64,000 bases of DNA from positions 5,146,001 to 5,210,000 of the forward strand of contig CAIIXF020000001.1 in the NCBI GenBank assembly GCA_903813345.2, given 5' to 3'. This document shows positions 2,394 through 63,760 of the stretch, one piece after another. Numbering within the stretch: position 1 is the stretch's first letter; the number at the start of each line of letters is the position of its first letter. Source of the DNA: Owenia fusiformis. Taxonomy: Eukaryota. The notes below the pieces were generated by a model, which saw nothing but the letters and a program-made list of their open reading frames with translations, was not told where the DNA came from and did no database searches. The position numbers and the translations under genes were made by a program.

Positions 2394-3325
2394 AATGTCC
2401 TAAATATCAAAAATCCTCAAAATAACCCCACATTTATGGGGGTAAGTTTTACTTACCTTAGATTCTTAGTAATCTATTTAGTATAATATTGTTTCCAAAA
2501 TTATTGTCATTTGTGATAATTAGTACTAAAAGTATTTTGAACAGGTCAGCTGCCATTTGCTTGGCCCAATCGTACCAGTCCACAAAAACAGTGAAATCAT
2601 ATTGAAAATACCAATAAAACTTTAAATTGAGGCAGATGCGATACAAAGTTACAGTCACCAAGATGAGCTAATTTCAGGCGAGATTCGGGAAATAAAAAGG
2701 TAGGTCATTCTTGTTTCCAGTCCTCTTAAATAATCTATGCTCCGGCTTTCGCCAGAAACTTACTTGACGTCCGTGATATTTGGGGGATTTTTACGGGACA
2801 TTTCCACAGACAAATGCTCTTATTTAATACAATTGGAAAATATTGAAATCTTTGGATTGATTATGAAAAAACAAGGATTTTCGGTGCATAACCCCATATA
2901 CCAAGGGATAGCTCCATATGTCCCCTTTAAAACTGAAAATGTTTTTGCATAGAAAGGCCATTGAAATAAAAAGATATGACCGCTTTTTCCGCCATCTATC
3001 CGAATTTTAAAAAATTTTCAATAGATTTCGAACTCAAGACCACCGCCACAAAAACTCAAATATTTGAAGTGAACCGAATCATTTCTTTATACTTTTTGTA
3101 AAATTATATACACACAAGATAAACAAAATAAAATATAAAATCTGTACATTTTCAGTTTTCACTAGTATTTTCACTATATATTTTCACTATATTGTAGGTC
3201 ATTCAAGACTTTCGAGGGGTGTAAAAAAATCTCAAAAATAATATGTTGTTTTTTTATCCAGAAAAGGGTACTTAATGTGTTAGTCAAATGTCTATAGTAT
3301 CTACCTTTTTAGGGCAAAAGACCTT

Positions 3326-3534
3326 TGTAACGACCCTTGGGCACGCTCGTCGGGGAGCTGTAGTGTACCGAGCCAGATACTAGACTCGAAAGAGAATGTG
3401 CTAAATTCAATGCCCCATGCGGGAATCGAACCCAGGACCTTCCGCTCTCGAGTCAGACGCTCTACCCCTGAGCCATAAAGGCTAGCCGCTATAGCTGAGA
3501 CTGTAGTAGCGACTTGCTATCGAAGGTCATTGCA
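3326..3534 (-). mobile_element. Solo LTR (209 bp) of the tRNA-containing TRIM, 4-bp TSD
   Basis: TG...CA ends, CCTT on both sides; matches the LTRs at 32580-32782 and 32851-33032; tRNA-like segment at 3411-3482 on the minus strand. Confidence 0.9.
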
Positions 3535-4015
3535 CCTTGGATAAATACCGTTCCTAGCTCCAGAGAGGTGATTTAGTCAAAAATTTGACGAAATGAGATA
3601 TCGAAAACTGGGGGGATAGGAAACAAATCTCACCCGGGACCTAAGATACTAAATAGATAATGATTTTTTTTAAATAAGTGTATTTGAGTTATAAAAATAG
3701 TTTTTCTTGGTAGAGAAGTTCCAGGGAAAAATCCAGAGGGGGGGGTCATCCGATCCAATTGCTTGAAAAATAGAAATCACGCATCAATTTAGGGTGTACT
3801 GTATGATAAAATGACACTCAAATCACGCAATATGTTCATATATTTAAAAAAATCTTTTTATTAAAATGCCAATACGGTAAAAATACATATGATACTTTTT
3901 CAATTTTAGCCAATATTTTTTCCATTAGAAAACACCTTGTGCCACTAGTACTTGCTGTGAACCCCCCCCCCCCCCCATTTCAATAATTTATAACTTAGTT
4001 TATTCATTTAGGACC

Positions 4016-5070
4016 ATGGGGCGCAGATATGTTAGTAAGAATGTGTGAAGGCAGTACTCACAAGAACAGCTGCAAGCTGCCATTGATGAGGTGAAACATG
4101 GGCGTTCCATACATAAGGCTATAGAGGAGCATGGTGTCCCCACTATAACACTGTCTGATGGAAGGTAAGCTTTAGGTATTGTATATTCATTCTTATTTCT
4201 ATATGTATATTCTTTTTGATTGTATGCGCCAATTTTAATTTTAGGTGATGGAAACAAATGGGTTAATGGAAGGCTCGGTGGCAAAATGCTAGATACATTA
4301 TGCAACCCGGAAAGGTAATATATAACATTGTGGTTAAAATTAATTTCAATGCAAGATTACCAGATGTATTTGAACAGTTAATCTGTGAACCCCCCCCCCC
4401 TCAATGCTGTGGGAAATGTTGATGCGAAATTCACTATTTTAAGTTAATGACCCACTGTCCCACTCCCCTCTGCTGTTCAAATACAGATAGCTTTCCAATA
4501 TTTATATTTTGAAATGCTCCCTTAATTGAGTTCAGTTGATTTCAAATTTATCTTCATTAGTCTTTTGGAATTTCAAATTACATTTCCACTACAGATTTAG
4601 TCTTGCAACAAGTCTCTGGTTGCCCCATGATACTATTTACCCAATGGAAAGTTGGTATGAAAGGAAATGAGAAACTTGAGCTTGATGCAAGACCTGTTTA
4701 ATATTTACAGTTTTGTTATTTACATATGTTTGTACCCGTTCTTTTAGTGTAATGGATAGCACGTTTTGCCTAAAGGTGAGAAGGTGTTGGTTCGAATCCA
4801 ACAAGGAACTACAATTAGTAATAAAACAAAACTGTTAATTTTTGTTGAACTGAAATAAAGTTATTGTATCAAATCACCATTTGCTAAAATATTTTTGAAT
4901 CAACTGAACTTCTATGTTATTTCACATGTGGCTAATATTTCCTTAAAATTATTATTAAATTGCATGATCTGATATTGTCTTCAGGATTGGTTTGAAGGCT
5001 TGAAGAAGCGCCATAAGAATATTTTGATCAGAAAGGCCGAAGCATTGACCTCAAACAGGGCAAAAACCTT
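4016..5070 (+). pseudogene. pogo/Tigger-like transposase N-terminus relic (psq HTH + CENP-B HTH), apparently intron-split
   Basis: 4016-4164 reads MGRRYVSKNV*RQYSQEQLQAAIDEVKHGRSIHKAIEEHGVPTITLSD then GTAAG; from 4985, after AG, DWFEGLKKRHKNILIRKAEALTSNRAK; in-frame TGA at 4046. Confidence 0.65.
4738..4810 (+). tRNA. tRNA-like sequence (pseudo-tRNA or TE-borne); anticodon not assignable
   Basis: Acceptor stem GTTCTTT/AAGGAAC, D arm GTGT-AATGGATA-GCAC, T arm GTTGG-TTCGAAT-CCAAC; irregular anticodon arm. Confidence 0.55.
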
Positions 5071-18504: not shown

Positions 18505-30160
<11,656 letters not shown>

Positions 30161-30290: not shown

Positions 30291-31474
30291 TAGTCTTTAA
30301 TACGTTCTTAATCAGTTTAAACCCGTTTGCAATTGGTTCTACAGTACCTCGTTCTCAATACGTCCTCAGACAGTTCAACTCGTTGTAAAAACGTCCCTAG
30401 TAGGATTGAAGTACGACAGTTCCGTTCGTAGTACGTTCAGCTCGTCGTCAGTACGTTGTCACTCGTTCTAATTGTAGAACGTATCGACCACGAGAACATT
30501 TTGAGCATGTTCTAAGTTCTAGAGGACCTACCCGTTCGAGTACGTTCGATGAAGTTTGTAAATAGACCCCAAACGGTTCTAAGTACGTCCAGTCCCTTCG
30601 TACTCAGTTGAAGCCCGTTTTCGAGAACGTAGTGAAAACTAGTTTGGTGTGATAGTAGGGTTACCCCCCTATCACACCAAACTAGTTCTTACCCGTTCTT
30701 GCCAGTCCTACGAAAACGTCGTAAAACGGGCTCAATCTGGCTGTGGTCGGGAAATAAGTCTAAAATAATTAGCTACTTCGTTCATAAACAGTCTTCAATA
30801 CGTCCATCTCGTTCGCAGTTCGTTCAGGTCGCACCACGTCGACGTGCAACGTAGTAGAACGCGTCCCTTAGTCTAGTAGGTCAACATGACCTGATTACAG
30901 AACGGTATGGTCACCATCGAATTTTGAATCAATTCAAAGTTCTAAAATCACATTCCCGTCTGAGAACGATCATAAAGTTCGTAAATAGACCTTAGAAAGT
31001 TGCAGCTACGTTCGTTCCGTTCGCACACAGTTTAAAACCAGTTTTGAAGAACGCAGTGGCAACTTGTTTGGTGTGATAGGTATATTTTTGCTAACTCGTT
31101 CATAAGCAGTGTTAAATACGTTCTTAATCAGTTTAAACCCGTTTGCAATTAGTTCTACCTCGTTCTCAACACGTCCTCAGACAGTTCAACTCGTTGTTAA
31201 AACGTCCCTAGTAGGATTGAAGTACGACGGTTCCGTTCGTAGTACGTCCAGCTCGTCGTTAGTACGTTGTCACTCGTTCTAATTGTAGAACGTGACGACC
31301 ACGAGAACATTTTGAGCATTGTCTAAGTTCTAGAGGACCTACCCGTCCGAGTACGTTCGATGACGTTTGTAAATAGATCCCAAACGGTTCTTAGTAGGTC
31401 CAGTCCGTTCGTACACAGTTGAAGCCCGTTTTCGAGAACGTAGTGAGAACTAGTTTGGTGTGATAGTAGGGTTA
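30291..31474. repeat. Three related 310-390-bp CpG-rich units ending GTTTGGTGTGATAG; the middle one is bounded by inverted CTATCACACCAAAC
   Basis: 30295-30664 near-identical to 31110-31474; diverged middle copy 30668-31081. Confidence 0.75.
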
Positions 31475-32139: not shown

Positions 32140-33150
32140 ATCACAAAATCATGATGTCGCTGAAGTTTCAGCGTATGTTGAGTCAGCTGTGGAAACCAAG
32201 CCAGTGTCAAATGACAAACTTGATAAGATTCGTGTGGCGACACTTTCCGATGATACGTTGTAGGTTGTAATGCATTATATCATACATGGGTGGCCTAGTG
32301 GTATATCGAGCGTAAAAATGTGTGCAAAATCATATTTTGTGTATTGTGATTCTGTTAGCACTGTCCAGGATTTGATACTTTTTGGAAGTCGTATTGTTGT
32401 CCCTGAAAGTATGCATACTGAAATTCTAGAGAGAATTCATGATGTCACTTGGGTATGAATAAATGTAGAGAGTGTGCTCGCATGTCCGTGTAGTATAAAT
32501 GAACAAATACAGGATAAAGTTAAATCTTGCTCTGAATGTCAAATTGAGAAACCTAAACAGAATAAAGAACCATTAATAATGTAACGACCCTTGGTCACGC
32601 TCGTCGGGGAGCTGTAATGTACCGAGCCAGATACTAGACTCGAAAGAGAATGTACTAAATTCAATGCCCCGTACGGGAATCGAACCCAGGACCTTCCGCT
32701 CTCGAGTCAGACGCCCTGAGCCATAAAGGCTAGCCACTGCAGCTGAGACTGTAGTAGCGACTTGCTATCGAAGGTCATTACACCATCCCCCCTAGAAGAC
32801 AACGTCCCGTCGTAACTAATTCACAAAGGCAATCCCATTTCTGACACCAATGTAACGACCCTTGGGCACGCTCGTCGGGGAGCTGTAGTGTGCCGAGCCA
32901 GATACTAGACTCGAAAGAGAATGTGCTAAATTCAATGCCCCGTACGGGAATCAAACCAAGGACCTTCCGCTCTCGAGTCAGACGCTCTACCCCTGAGACT
33001 GTAGTAGCGACTTGCTATAGAAGGTCATTACAATAACAACACAATTACCGGAACGACCGTGGTTGAAAATTGTGTGATCTTTGCGATTCAACAGGTGAAC
33101 AGCATCTCATTACTGTAGATTATTTCTCGCGATTTATTAAAATTCAGAAA
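32140..33150 (+). pseudogene. Gypsy/Ty3 pol relic (linker, integrase zinc finger and start of core)
   Basis: ..HYIIHGWP..GSRIVVP..ILERIH..HLGMNKC..CSECQ..KEPLI|TTQLPERPW..ITVDYFSRF; stops and frameshifts; split by the TRIM. Confidence 0.85.
32580..33032 (-). mobile_element. Full-length TRIM with tRNA-derived LTRs (Helenus-like)
   Basis: LTRs 32580-32782 and 32851-33032; 68-bp interior with PBS TGGTGTCAGAAATGGGAT and PPT AGGGGGGATGG on minus strand; TSD ATAA. Confidence 0.92.
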
Positions 33151-35506
33151 TAAGCCCGCACTACTACATTTGAAAAAAACATAGAGATACATGTGCCGTG
33201 CGTTTTTGTGCTACTAGGCATGATGTTTGAGATACGTTAAACGCCAGTGTGTTCACTATTTTATGCTTGTTGGTCAGCAATTATGATGCATTCGACTATA
33301 TGAAAATGAATATGAAAAGAATAAAATTCCACAGCAGTATTATGAACAAATACGGTTCTAATAGATTGCATTCATTTCATGTAAATTACATCTGTGCTTA
33401 CTATTCATTTAACGATGTTTACCACATGAATGGTAAAGTAGTATATCATTCTAGAAAGGATTAAGTCAGGTAAGAGATCGTTTACATTTATACTAAACAA
33501 TTGCAAATGATATCATGAGTTGAACTTGGTTTTGTAGAATGAAAATGTAATATTATGTATTGTATTCCATATGTACTGAGGTTCTAGGTAAAAGCGGGAA
33601 TATATATAGTTAGATCACAAACTTAAACACTACTCTTAAAGTTGTACTAAAACCAATTAAAGAATCTCTCATTATCTTGTTTTTGACAAATAGCATCCCT
33701 TTTGTTATGTTGTCTACAAATCTAAAATTGATCTTATATGACTTTTTAAAATTGTTTTTTACTCTAAAATAAGTCAAAAGAATAAAAAAGTCAGTGTTTG
33801 TGCGAACAATCTTTACTGGTAACTGCCGCACCACCAAACCAGATCGGCACACAAGAATCACCCTTGAAAATTCCTTATCGATCCGCCTGGGTCTTCCCTC
33901 AATTAGCATATATGGTACTCGGGAAACGGCCCGGCGCGACAGTATTTGTCTATGTTATAAGAAATTTCTAGATTGAACAGTTCACACTCGCAAGTGGCAT
34001 CTCCATATATGGCCAAAAAGGTGGAGTTAACAATAAGCAATGCAGGGATTGACACGATTGACACAAAGAAGTCTCGATGAATCTCGCTTAAACTCCGCCC
34101 CTTCTTCGTGAAAAATAACGTGAATTTCGGCTTTTGCTCGGTCATATCCGGGCATCTCGGCTTCGAACCCAATCAGAAGTTTCAATTTTGAATGACATTG
34201 CATAAATTACCTCAAGTCTCACCGAATATATTTATGTATACGTTAACTATGTTGTTTCCTTGTGGTGTATTGTTTTATGTTGTGCAGTATGTTCTGTTCA
34301 ACTATTTTTGCGGTCTTGGTTTATGTTGGGTTATTGATCATATTGTCTTGTGTTATGCCGTTTCTGTTTTATATTCATTATAGTCTTCTGATGTGCTGTG
34401 TTCAGTAGTGTTGTGTAGTGTAACGTTTAGTTGTGTTCTGTTGCATTGCTTTATGTTCTATTTTCCTACCACATACCATGTAACTAGTCTTTACTTTGGA
34501 AATCCAATATTATGAAATAACTGGTTACATCATATCCAGCAGTTAATTACCAAATGTTAAAACCAGAACAACTTGCGATAGTTCATTGAGGAGCGATATA
34601 GGTAAAGGGCTGAAAGCTAAGAGGTGAACGTGAAATTTAGTCGCTGTTCATTTAAGAAGGTCTTTGAACATAGTGTATGAATAAGGGTATGAATCAAGAG
34701 AATGTGTTTATAGTCTTTACAGGATGGACAACATTAAACTGATTATAAGTCAACGCTAACGAAAGCTTAACACGTATTTGAAATTAAAGACATATTAAGT
34801 AAGACGATTTAATCACAACTTAAAATCATTTATGATTGTTTCAGTGGAATGGATTAACAGTACAGCAAAAAAAGGTATGTAGAAACGTGCTTATATTCGT
34901 CACTGTTGTTGACAGTACGGTGAGTACGGGACATTAACCGCTTCTGCATACTTTTGAGTATGAACAAGCCGAATTGAGGGGAAAATATTGGCAAAATGGA
35001 TTTTTTATCATCACATTTCAGAAATATTTCATTGGATGATGTTACTTCAGGAAAGTCATAAACTGTTAATTTGAGAAAGAAAGCATAACAGAAGTTTTCA
35101 AGGTAGTTTACGAAACAAGTCGTTCAGGCTTCAAACAAACACGGGAATAATGTAAAAGATCTGCTAGGTACGATAGCTGAAACCTTGAACTAATTATCGA
35201 GAGCTATGATCATTAAGGCAAATTATTATAACAAGATGGTGCAGCATAATCAGATTCGAACAACAATTAACCTGTATACACTTTGTAGTTCAGTTGTTTC
35301 ATGGGCAAGTTGTTAGCTTTTTAAACTTGATCTATTAGAATGTCATTGAAGACAAAAGGTCCTTTCAACTTGTATTTTTCTTTTAAAAATCGGTTCATGA
35401 TTTTTGGGGCTGCAAAAGTGAGGCCCCGTTTCCCAGACCATCTTTGAATAATCAAGTCTTTTTAAGGATATATACGAAATATTTTGCTACACGTTTGGTG
35501 GCTTCT

Positions 35507-43280: not shown

Positions 43281-43628
43281 CTCCCAGTTAATAATCTTCA
43301 GATAAGTGATTTTGAAGGGGTACATATTGTTCATCCATCGAATTTTCGCGTGTCACTATTTTCTTCAAAACTGTAAAAATGTACCATTATCATGATGACG
43401 TGACCTTCAATGTGCTGAAAATAAAGTATAAATATACATGTCGAATATTTCTGTCGTTTTCCTGTCCTGATCGAGAAATACTACCAGCCTGTTCCCGCAA
43501 CCGCAAAAAGAAGGCCACGTGATCATTTTCCTCATGTTAATCTTATTTTATGATTACAGATCAATGCATCAAGAAACCTGAGGTAAAGCTAAGCGGCGAA
43601 AGGACAAAACAAATACAGGTCTATCACC

Positions 43629-45418
43629 ATGGATTCCCTGTTGGCAAACTGTACTGGTACCCGCACCATGAATATGAAAGTATACATGAACTCGAGTGGC
43701 TGTGGCTCATTTGACCCATTATTAGAGCCCCCAGTCATTGCCACAAACTCAACTTCTACGTCACCCGGGGCAGACCTCAAAAGTGCCGCGCTTATGACAA
43801 ACATCATCATGATATGCTCAGGAATATTTGGTAACAGCTTAGCCTTGGCTGTGCTATATAAAAGTCGTAAAGAAGTGAGAAAGAGTGTGTTTTATATATT
43901 GGTTGCAGCGCTTGCGTGGACGGACCTCACAGGGATTATATTAGTGTCCCCCATCCCATTGTTAGTGTATACTGATACAGTGTTGTTATCCGAAGCCGTG
44001 GCATTGTGCAAGTACCATGCATTTGTAATGATATCATTTGCACTTGCGACTCCACTGATCGTTGGTACAATGGCAGTTGAACGCTTCATGGCACTAAGAT
44101 ATGCGTATGTCTACTCAGTACATGTGACAAAATCAAAAGCACGTATTGTTATAGGAATAATATATTGTATTGTGCTTGTGGTAGCCCTACTGCCCGTTAC
44201 TGGGTTTGGAAGCTATGCCTTACAGTGGCCATATACCTGGTGCTTTCTTAATTTCCATGCCGAAAGCCCTCTGGATACGGCATATGCAGTTACGTTTGCG
44301 GGCATCAGCATGAGCATGATCCTAGTCATCATCACGTGCAATGTAATCGTCATTATTACACTGTTGAGGTTGCGCCACAGGAGACAATCAATGCGCCTTA
44401 ACAGCTCAGGGGAACAGAGGAGGATATGTAGGTCCAGGAAACATAACATGCTTGAACTACAAATGGTATGGCTTCTTTGTGGCATCACATGCGTATTCAC
44501 TATGTGCTGGGCACCCCTCAATGTAAGTATCATTTCAGATTCGTTCTAAATGACACGATTTAAGTGCACCCTAAGTGCACCAACAAATTGCCTAGAAATG
44601 AGGACATCGCCAAACAAAATCCCAATCTCTAGAAAGTTAGAACAGTTGAGAATTAAAATGGCTGTCCCGTTCTTGTCAAATTAACTAACATTTATGGCTG
44701 ATGCTTCACTTAAAGTGATAATGAACGAGTTCCCATCTAAGATTACCTAAGATCATCTAAGATTATCTACTATTTGATTGCCATTTTAATTTGTCCCATA
44801 TGCTCTTTTTAGATCCGCATTTTGATTAATGAGATAACTCAAGTGAGAGACAACAAACAAGATCTAATCTCACTAAGACTGGCCTCGGTGAATCAAATCT
44901 TGGATCCATGGGTCTATATCTTAATGAGGAAGGCTCTTATTGAAAAAGTTCTGGCTTGTATGCGGCGCATTCTCTGCACCAACAGAGTTTGCGGACCTGA
45001 AATGCATTCAAATAGTTCAATCCAAATGCCCGCGCAGACTTTTAAATCATTCACATTCAGAAACACAACATTCAAACAAAATACGACAATTAAACAGACG
45101 AAATTAAATGGTGTAACTATGAGACGGCTTCAACAGAATGGACACCGACGCCAAGTGTATATTACAACTGCTAATACTGCTCTAGAAGGGCAAGCCAAGC
45201 CACAGACGAATCCTTCTCTTGCAATATCACCAACACGCTCTCATTCTAGAAGCCAAGAATCTCTCTGTAAAGACGTACATCCGTGTTTACCCGATGACCC
45301 ATTATTAGATATTCAATATAATGACAGAATCACAAACCTAGATGAACCTAAACCCCCGGACCCAGTGGTAGAAATATACATCGATGGAATGGATAGCTCA
45401 TCTGATAGTTACAATTAA
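43629..45418 (+). CDS. PTGER4-like: Prostanoid receptor, prostaglandin E2 receptor EP4-like class A GPCR, ~499 aa; exons 43629-44522 and 44813-45418
   Basis: 7 TM segments, GN, ERF, ECL2 QWPYTWCF, CWAP, TM7 RLASVNQILDPWVY; phase-0 GT-AG intron at the end of TM6 as in vertebrate prostanoid receptors; AATAAA at 45495. Confidence 0.92.
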
Positions 45419-60530: not shown

Positions 60531-60999
60531 GCGGCATCTTCAGCATCTAATTACAGAACAATTCTTATTTGAGGTGAAATATGAGCACTCAACATTAACC
60601 AGGAAGATAGAACGTAGCAAAGTTCTAAATAAAATATATCTAGTGTTAGTATCTCTACAAATTATATCAAGTAAGTAATTTAATTTTCATTTTAGTTCAG
60701 GATATTGGGCTACAATTATAATGCTTAAAATAAATCAGTGTAATGATCAGTCATCAGTAAATTAAGTGAATTACATAAGAGTAATTAATGCAAGTTCGGC
60801 TTATAAAATAAGTCCCAGAACCAACAGGGTTAATGGTGGTTGGTATATAGAAACATTCAACTGAATTTTTAATGCATATCGACAATAAGTAGGAACAATA
60901 AGTTGATTAATCAAATCGAGTATTCCAACTCTCTCAAAGGCTTTACAAATGCTATTTTCTTTGCAGCAGGGACATATAATCTATACAAAGCTAACACAC

Positions 61000-61713
61000 A
61001 TGATGAACAGGAAAATTTCAACCAGAGATAACCAAGCAGATGACTTCTCCTCAGATGAAGAAAGTGATATAGATTTTGATGATTCGGTGTCGGTGAACAA
61101 TGACAACAATAACAACTCAGAAAAACATTGGCAAGAGGACAGACTTCTATTTAATGGCAAGGAACAATTTGTTAATGACACCAGTGTCGCGGGACCATCG
61201 GGACTGGCATTGGCGACCCGGGAATCATGGACAGGTTCACAGTTTGGCCATTCTTCCTTGTCGCCAAGACTGTCGTTTCTGAGCTATCTTCCAGAACAGA
61301 GGGAGTTTCTTCCAAAACAAATGCTAGATTCTCCACTAATATCGGATGGTTTCCCATCTATACGTAAAGGACATAGGCGGGTATTCACTAATACACGTGA
61401 AAGGTGGCGTCAACAAAACGTAAATGGTGCTTTTGCAGAACTGCGTCGTATTGTACCAACTCATCCGCCGGATAAAAAACTTAGCAAAAATGAGATTTTA
61501 AGACTTGCAATAAAATATATTAAATTGCTCATGAAAATTTTGGAATATCAGGACGGTAAGAGTACTTGTGCAGAAAATAGGGAGTATTCAAATGTAGCAC
61601 ATCAAAATAACGATAAACTTCGGGATCCTAGGAGTTCGCCAATTCTGTCGCCAGATGGCTCTCATAATGAATCTAGTTACTATGGTGATACTAGTGCTGA
61701 TGATTCGAATTGA
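61000..61713 (+). CDS. TAL1-like: SCL/TAL1/LYL1-family bHLH transcription factor, ~237 aa
   Basis: [49 protein letters not shown] is the TAL1-type bHLH; first ATG after the splice acceptor is at 61000. Confidence 0.93.
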
Positions 61714-62571: not shown

Positions 62572-63760
62572 CAGGCCCGTAAGACACTTTTCTCCAAGGG
62601 GGGTGCGGTTTTTACTAAAGAGAATATAAAATCGTCAATTTTTTGCCGCGTAAACCAAATCGCATAAGTCAGAGTGGGGGGGGGGGTCGGTCACTCCCCC
62701 TAGAAGATTTTACAGTTTTGAGATGCTATTTGGTGCATTCTGGGCACTTTCAAAGTGTATGAGTCAATAAGAAAAATGTGATTTTTTCAAATTCTTTTGG
62801 GGGTGTCAAAAAGGATGAGAGGGTGAAGTGGGGGAGCAAGGGGTCGTCCCCCAGAAACATTGACCATATCAAGGTGCAATTTGATGAGGTCTGGGCACTT
62901 AAAAAATGTCTGAGACAATACATGAAATTCAGAATATTTTCTTTTGTTTTGTGGGGGATGTTAGGGGTGGCTTACTCTCATAGAAAATTTTACAATTTAA
63001 AGATGATATTTGGTACTTCTGGGCACTTTTAAAGTGTATTAGTCAATAAAAACATTGAAAAACAATCATAATTTTTTTCAAATTTTGGGGGTGTCAAAGG
63101 GGAGGGAGGGGTGCCAGAGGGGGAGGTGGAGTTGGGGTGCCAGAGGGGGAGCAAGTGTTTGTCCCCCATATCTGTCCCCCAGAAACATTTACGATATCTA
63201 GGTGCTATTCGATGAAGTCTGGGCACTTTAAAAGTGTCTGTGCCTATCAGTTCCCAAGAAAATTTTACAATTTTAAGATGCTGTTTGGTGCTTTCTGGGC
63301 ACTTTCAGAGTGTATGAGTCAATAAAAATTTGAAAAATCTTAATTTTTTTTTAATTTTTGGGGGGCAGGGGGTGTGTCAAGGGGGGATGCCAGATTTTAC
63401 GACACTATTTGGTGCTTCCTGGGCACTTTCAAAGTGTATGAGTCAATTAAAGAATTTGAGAAAATCACAACTTTTATCCAATTTTTTTTTTGGGGGGGGG
63501 TCAAGGGGGGGGGGGGCGCCAGAGGGGGAGGTGGTGTGGGGATGAAAGTGCAAGATGCAAGAGGAAAGCAAGTGTTAGTCCCCCAGAAACACTAACTGTA
63601 TCAAGGAGCTATTTGATGATGTCTGTGCACTTTAAAAGTGTCTGGGACAAAACACTGAAATAAATTTAGATTTTTTCCATTGTTTTGTGGGGGGTGTGAG
63701 GGGTGGCAAATACCCCTAGAAAATTTTACAATTTTAAGATGCTATTTGGTGCTTTCACCT
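62572..63760. repeat. G-run-rich tandem repeat array (satellite-bearing MITE-like)
   Basis: Recurring GAAAATTTTACAATTTTAAGATGCTATTTGGTGC..TCTGGGCACTTT units; begins CAGGCCCGTA. Confidence 0.65.

Follow-up and report, generated by a model that had tools for sequence, protein, structure and literature searches.

Helenus elements are TRIMs that carry a tRNA-derived sequence in their LTRs and a PBS and a polypurine tract (PPT) between them (Kojima 2024, Biology 13:119, PMC10886601). The described families are 311-1263 bp long. In animals they are characterised by 4-bp duplications and conserved A and B boxes, and their helpers are probably Gypsy elements; tRNA-Leu is found among the primers of the wasp and vertebrate families (PMC10886601). 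Table 1 in the main text of that paper comprises six animal phyla, and Annelida is absent from it. As for transcription by Pol III, the discussion section of the same paper names no family of the tRNA type with experimental proof and treats Cassandra as the sole validated case.

Here, a 453-bp element is considered that was found in 64,000 nucleotides of the genome of the annelid Owenia fusiformis (this whole stretch is referred to as the window, and all positions are counted from its first letter). The element is very probably a TRIM of the Helenus type. The whole reading, namely an old and damaged Helenus-type TRIM in Owenia fusiformis together with the mechanism proposed for it below, has in our opinion a probability of about 0.8.

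Structure of the element and of a solo LTR

The first-pass annotation, made from the letters alone, had described a minus-strand element with TG..CA direct repeats lying 68 bp apart, an ATAA duplication, a tRNA-Leu-type PBS situated 1 nt past the 5' LTR and a PPT abutting the 3' LTR. Inspection of the sequence and a repeat search gave the same boundaries, lengths and placements, and these are collected in Table 1 along with those of the related sequences in the window.

Table 1. Positions in the window of the 453-bp element, its parts and two related sequences
Feature	Positions	Strand	Evidence
453-bp element, whole	32580-33032	minus	two TG..CA direct repeats, 68-bp spacer and ATAA on each side
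Target-site duplication ATAA, downstream side in element sense	32576-32579	.	sequence; flank-joining reads keep one copy
3' LTR, 203 bp, TG..CA	32580-32782	minus	repeat comparison; DNA-read ends
tRNA-like remnant in 3' LTR, D-arm short by 6 bp	32665-32730	minus	LTR alignment
Internal region, 68 bp, non-coding	32783-32850	minus	sequence; DNA depth
Polypurine tract AGGGGGGATGG, 11 nt, purine-rich, touching 3' LTR	32783-32793	minus	direct reading of sequence
PBS TGGTGTCAGAAATGGGAT, 18 nt	32832-32849	minus	17/18 complementary to tRNA-Leu(CAA) 3' end
Single spacer nucleotide between PBS and 5' LTR (T in minus-strand sense)	32850	minus	sequence
5' LTR, 182 bp	32851-33032	minus	repeat comparison; DNA-read ends
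tRNA-like remnant in 5' LTR, tRNA-like 5' end lost to 27-bp deletion	32936-32997	minus	LTR alignment
Target-site duplication ATAA, upstream side in element sense	33033-33036	.	sequence
Solo LTR of same family, 209 bp	3326-3534	minus	repeat comparison; CCTT at 3322-3325 and 3535-3538
tRNA-like 72-mer of solo LTR, intact, LTR sense positions 53-124	3411-3482	minus	ARAGORN; Rfam; motif scan
LTR-like relative, short (173 bp) and more distant	2221-2393	minus	same termini, T-arm, downstream block

The direct repeats between the LTRs comprise 140 nt at 95% identity and 40 nt at 98% identity; owing to the 27 bases missing from the second repeat, the repeat search reported the pair as two repeat families. 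In the plus-strand reading, both LTRs start with TGTAACG and end with ATTACA, and the TG..CA ends form a terminal inverted repeat with agreement at 9 of 10 positions. Short and non-coding, and with an LTR at either end, the element has the attributes of a TRIM, and the PBS and the purine tract occupy the same places next to the 5' and 3' LTRs, respectively, as in Helenus. Tails of the SINE type and long, variable duplications had been named beforehand as signs that would speak against an LTR element. Inspection of the sequence revealed no A-rich or simple-repeat tail on the 453-bp element or on the solo LTR, and in both of the two well-bounded copies the duplications are exact and 4 bp long (ATAA and CCTT), as they are in Helenus. 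The LTR pair is a real element, beyond chance, because the repeats are long, both well-bounded copies have exact 4-bp duplications and DNA reads exist that skip 457 bases at this place.

The PBS pairs with the tRNA-Leu(CAA) 3' end at all but one of its positions, as the first-pass annotation had supposed for a tRNA of the Leu type. This 3' end is printed for Drosophila genes (PMC4536317), the same 3' end occurs among human-type tRNAs (PMC10359600) and a mouse probe has the complementary sequence (PMC7997516); the identity between fly and mammals suggests that the annelid tRNA-Leu(CAA) would have the same 3' end. At the mismatched place, 95 of 100 DNA reads, which come from other copies, differ from the 453-bp copy. 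A pattern search with up to 3 mismatches gave no second PBS match in the window, nor do its 64 kb contain an autonomous element with this PBS; a tRNA-Leu gene of the host was not seen either. A helper belonging to the Gypsy superfamily is somewhat favoured.

An intact tRNA-like segment of about 72 nt, with both boxes and in the sense of the element, had also been proposed for the solo LTR, and it was recovered by ARAGORN, by Rfam and by a motif scan. ARAGORN calls it tRNA-Ser(cga), and the Rfam tRNA model, with a gathering score of 29, gives it 34.4 bits. Its orientation in the LTR is sense, i.e., the same as the direction from PBS to PPT. The box A-like sequence TGGCTCAGGGG agrees with the consensus at all but one of 11 positions and box B GGTTCGATTCC at all 11, and the motif scan places the two boxes 32 nt apart. 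The forms of the boxes given for Helenus, TRGCY..YGG for box A and GGTTC for box B, are thus both present in the solo LTR. The tRNA-derived LTR sequence that is typical of Helenus is intact there and occurs in deleted versions in the 453-bp copy.

The fold of the segment at 3411-3482 is not more stable than those of shuffled sequences (z 0.26), and its acceptor stem contains several non-standard pairs. The segment of the solo LTR is derived from a tRNA and is unlikely to be a working tRNA. An origin from tRNA-Ser(cga) was set aside, as the segment lacks a long variable arm and several pairs of the acceptor stem are non-standard. By a hand count, which serves as a lead only, the anticodon arm agrees at 27 of 35 positions with the complement of a tRNA-Trp probe given in PMC7997516. 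One more tRNA-like sequence is situated at 4738-4810 of the plus strand (Rfam tRNA, 46.2 bits; no anticodon assigned by ARAGORN); it is not akin to the LTR in sequence and could represent the head of a SINE or a pseudogene of a tRNA.

The 453-bp copy itself is damaged, in agreement with the first-pass annotation, which had reported that the 5' LTR has lost 27 bp between CTGAG repeats and has an altered box B; both changes are real in the LTR alignment. The altered box B reads GGTTTGATTCC, and boxes A and B are both damaged in this LTR. The 6-bp loss in the tRNA-like D-arm of the 3' LTR, which had gone unmentioned, means that the tRNA-like part is broken in both LTRs, and Rfam gives no tRNA score for either of them, detecting the T-loop alone. 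The two LTRs differ from each other at 7 of 176 aligned places (K2P 0.041, or about 4%), and each of them differs from the solo LTR to a similar degree (K2P 0.040 and 0.046). The insertion is old, because the divergence between its LTRs is as large as their divergence from the solo LTR. For the same reason of age this copy, which is very likely inactive, tells little of the present activity of the family.

The element is surrounded by a decayed reading frame of the plus strand (32264-32578 and 33037-33180). A Pfam search of the left flank gave nothing without read-through of the stop; with X placed at its one stop, the left flank matches Integrase_H2C2 with an E-value of 0.0021 and 18.6 bits, below the cutoff of 25.5. 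The insertion site likely lies within the decayed remnant of a retrotransposon integrase, and this remnant is the target of the element and not its partner. The flank is probably an old repeat itself, because its DNA depth is several times the single-copy expectation. To the right of it, positions 33272-33432 have zero DNA depth, and a few RNA reads of one orientation only are found at 33272-33355 in all three RNA runs; the gap in DNA coverage may reflect divergence or a deletion in the sequenced individual.

Several other sequences were observed in the window. To the left of the element, a 300-nt direct repeat with 94% identity, CG-rich for the window, occupies 30345-30644 and 31156-31455 (811 bp apart), and exon-like frames of the plus strand at 29635-29793 and 29996-30160 contain, as seen by eye, the GDSGGP motif of serine proteases. 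To the right, the plus strand bears a frame of a rhodopsin-family GPCR at 43593-44549 (Pfam 7tm_1, E 2.9e-26) and a TAL1/SCL-like bHLH frame at 60907-61713 (Pfam HLH, E 5.9e-20), the latter being 99% identical to an Owenia fusiformis protein. A degenerate array of direct repeats extends over 62684-63754, with units of 60-88 nt that are 64-88% alike and are spaced by 76-328 bp.

Other copies and relatives in public reads

One public DNA run (X19) and three RNA runs, all with the same species label, were matched to positions 32180-33432 at 85% likeness. From the DNA run 1804 reads were placed, 1763 of them fitting in part only. The summed DNA depth was about 405 and 360 in the two bins of the LTR core, about 112 in the purely internal bin and about 18 in the left flank, and the single-copy expectation is about 3.3-fold (1661 million letters read and an assembly of 505.8 Mb). 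Behind position 32782, which is an LTR terminus, 155 DNA reads continue into diverse sequence, and 91 reads come from diverse sequence before 32851, which is another; therefore, the LTR has these same end points in many other copies. Of the 98-114 DNA reads that cover each of four internal places, 93-97 have a letter unlike that of the 453-bp copy, and it follows from these shared differences that the short internal part is present in many other copies. Under the 3.3-fold assumption, rough numbers of about 30 internal parts, 120 LTR ends and 230 core segments, including relatives, were obtained, all of which rest on read depth, on the 85% likeness threshold and on partly fitting reads. Metagenome contigs gave 0 matches to conserved LTR patterns, a result that has no bearing on the distribution of the family.

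The insertion itself is also visible in the reads. Eleven DNA reads with 9 start places join 32574/32579 to 33032/33037 and skip 457 bases, which corresponds to the 453-bp element plus one ATAA duplication. Whichever their source, these reads confirm an insertion with a 4-bp duplication. Their explanation by a present-day presence/absence polymorphism was mostly rejected, because the depth of the flank is about 18 versus the expected 3.3-fold, the flank reads nearly all differ from the window at the same places and the LTRs are 4% apart. More probably the reads stem from a paralogue of the flank repeat that is empty; an allele in a divergent individual is a less likely source.

The shorter LTR-like relative (Table 1) lacks the tRNA 5' half and box A and contains a 22-bp insertion; no clear target-site duplication was found at its ends (ATTA versus AATG). 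Among the RNA reads, loose ends occur that resemble this type. A 112-nt direct repeat with 88% identity (1771-1882 and 2109-2220), which has a partial inverted copy between its units and a MITE-like look, stops exactly at the start of this relative.

Loose ends of DNA reads also occur at 32698 (121 reads), 32623 (56 reads) and 32714 (51 reads). This suggests other families or subfamilies, in which the T-arm and the block behind it are shared and the 5' halves are different. The consensus of the loose ends at 32714 contains a box A with agreement at 11 of 11 positions, in another subfamily, with a read agreement of only 0.63.

Transcription and the proposed mechanism

In the three RNA-seq runs, 269, 257 and 315 reads were placed; the depth over the family amounts to tens, and that of the immediate flanks is zero. 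The ratios of plus to minus first mates over the bins of the element, obtained as hand sums, are 1.35, 1.63 and 1.46 in RNA versus 0.90 in DNA. In none of these runs is there a place where many molecules start or end, and libraries of this kind capture Pol III transcripts poorly. Concerning the hallmark of TRIMp3, a Pol III template RNA made from a small-RNA-derived promoter, the RNA reads come from both strands and have no defined start, in cDNA libraries not designed for Pol III products. Many RNA reads run on into a few very consistent flanks (agreement of 0.87-1.0), which fits a few transcribed loci carrying copies along, that is, passive co-transcription in host transcripts.

Neither a TATA box nor AATAAA or ATTAAA is present in the LTR. 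Runs of four T or four A are also absent from the element on either strand; among mononucleotide shuffles 7% are without such runs, and the window overall contains about 35 of them per kb, so that their lack argues weakly for Pol III. With no run of four T in its sense, the element would let a Pol III transcript that begins at LTR position 53 pass through the entire 3' LTR. Lacking a Pol III terminator, it also leaves the 3' end of such an RNA undefined, a point that speaks against the use of Pol III.

The following mechanism may be proposed. The RNA would begin in the 5' LTR and run into the 3' LTR, and, by precedent and by the motifs found, Pol III would initiate it within the 5' LTR, at the tRNA-like segment. 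The terminal redundancy for strand transfer would in that case come from LTR positions 53-209. For its packaging, the RNA would depend on proteins supplied by an autonomous LTR retrotransposon. As in the established biology of LTR retrotransposons, reverse transcription would be primed by tRNA-Leu(CAA) annealed to the PBS, the purine tract would prime the synthesis of the plus strand and the integrase of the helper would insert the DNA by a 4-bp staggered cut. The tRNA-like segment is probably an internal Pol III promoter, as was proposed for Helenus; as to Pol III actually making the template RNA, we regard the arguments for and against as evenly poised.

According to another explanation, the TRIM is transcribed in a Pol II-type manner or passively, and the tRNA-derived SINE fragment is a mere passenger of the LTR and not the promoter of the template RNA. 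The RNA reads, which show no pile-up of starts, come from both strands and continue into locus-specific flanks, would be expected in this case. It also agrees with the relative at 2221-2393, which has no box A and yet is resembled by the RNA reads, with the sharing of the T-arm and the downstream block alone by the DNA families (121 ends at 32698 and 56 at 32623), which fits a captured SINE module, and with a tRNA-like segment that folds no better than shuffles. Nevertheless, this explanation is rather unlikely, since the LTR is devoid of a TATA box and a polyadenylation signal, whereas it has a perfect box B and an almost perfect box A, with tRNA-like spacing and in the sense orientation. Moreover, cDNA RNA-seq is ill-suited to the detection of Pol III products, and the A and B boxes are conserved in many Helenus families, while Cassandra is transcribed from a Pol III promoter (PMC10886601).

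Much less probable is a one-off derivative that arose by internal deletion from an autonomous LTR retrotransposon with tRNA-like LTRs and does not represent a propagating miniature family. Such an origin would be in line with the 64-kb window, where no second full-length copy was found, but the DNA reads speak against it: the depth of the 68-bp internal part is about six times that of the left flank, about 95 in 100 internal reads share differences from the 453-bp copy, and among the best-supported loose ends listed (279 others exist) none falls in the internal part. That a tRNA-derived SINE was merely duplicated in tandem at this locus, with no LTR element involved, would explain a repeat with a tRNA-like head and the interspersed related sequence, but can practically be dismissed in view of the TG..CA ends with their terminal inverted repeat of 9/10, the PBS 1 nt off and the abutting PPT, the exact 4-bp duplications that border the pair as well as the solo copy, the missing tail and the reads of other copies that stop exactly at the LTR termini.

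The reading of the element as a Helenus-type TRIM leads to a further proposal, which is tentative and more likely wrong than right. This could be the first lineage of Helenus-type TRIMs in Annelida, the seventh animal phylum, that arose independently, by the capture of the head of a resident tRNA-derived SINE into the LTR of a TRIM, and gave subfamilies differing in the tRNA-like 5' half, one of them having lost box A. If this is true, the subfamily without box A is a natural test of whether a Pol III promoter is needed for mobilisation of the LTR type.

Comparison with known systems

SINEs have no LTRs, PBS or PPT; they depend on LINEs and possess tails and variable duplications. The tRNA-derived SINEs (SINE2) are similar to the family considered here in having a head that resembles a tRNA, with boxes A and B, and interspersed copies, and the DNA reads suggest that the T-arm block is common to other families. 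The 453-bp element differs from them, as it has two LTRs and neither a 3' tail nor variable duplications.

Retrozymes, too, are small LTR elements without coding sequence whose LTRs bear a functional RNA motif, but in them this motif is a hammerhead ribozyme (PMC10886601), and in the window neither the hammerhead nor any other ribozyme family scored above the Rfam thresholds. Cassandra (Kalendar et al. 2008, as summarised in PMC10886601) also has a promoter of the Pol III type within the LTRs of a TRIM. It differs in being a plant element with a 5S segment, its own terminator and a terminal redundancy of 18 bp, while the 453-bp element has no terminator. The nemertean TRIMs named Ajax (PMC10886601) share with the 453-bp element an LTR segment derived from a small RNA, a tRNA-Leu PBS and a spiralian host; the differences are that the Ajax segment is 5S-derived, with boxes A, IE and C, and the duplications are 5 bp long, whereas the segment is tRNA-like and the duplications are of 4 bp in the present case. 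The LTR contains no segment derived from 5S rRNA of the kind seen in Cassandra and Ajax, since Rfam gives only tRNA matches and no 5S rRNA match in the window.

A text search of the literature, as distinct from Repbase, Dfam and the supplements of PMC10886601, found no report of Helenus-type elements in annelids. It is plausible that the family is undescribed, because its host is an annelid and Annelida is absent from the main-text table of PMC10886601; it may still be on file in Repbase, in Dfam or in those supplements. Helenus-type elements represent a recently recognised union of a Pol III promoter with retrotransposition of the LTR type, and an annelid family would extend their known range. 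Owenia fusiformis, for which a chromosome-scale assembly exists along with RNA and chromatin data on its development, would be a tractable species for testing the Pol III step. From the practical point of view, LTRs of this kind inflate predictions of tRNA genes; the solo LTR was called a tRNA by both ARAGORN and Rfam, and such sequences should therefore be masked in annotation.

The closest likeness is that to Helenus. With its 453 bp the element is inside the size range of the Helenus families, and the LTRs, the PBS, the PPT, the 4-bp duplication and the tRNA-like LTR segment with its boxes, as well as the presumed priming by tRNA-Leu and a tRNA-like part that is unlikely to be a working tRNA, all have their counterparts there (PMC10886601). 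The parallel with Cassandra and Helenus drawn in the first-pass annotation is borne out by these structural features as they are described in that paper. Summarizing, the 453-bp element possesses every structural feature by which Helenus is defined in its published description, and its kind is thus already known; what we have here is probably a known kind of element in a new host phylum.
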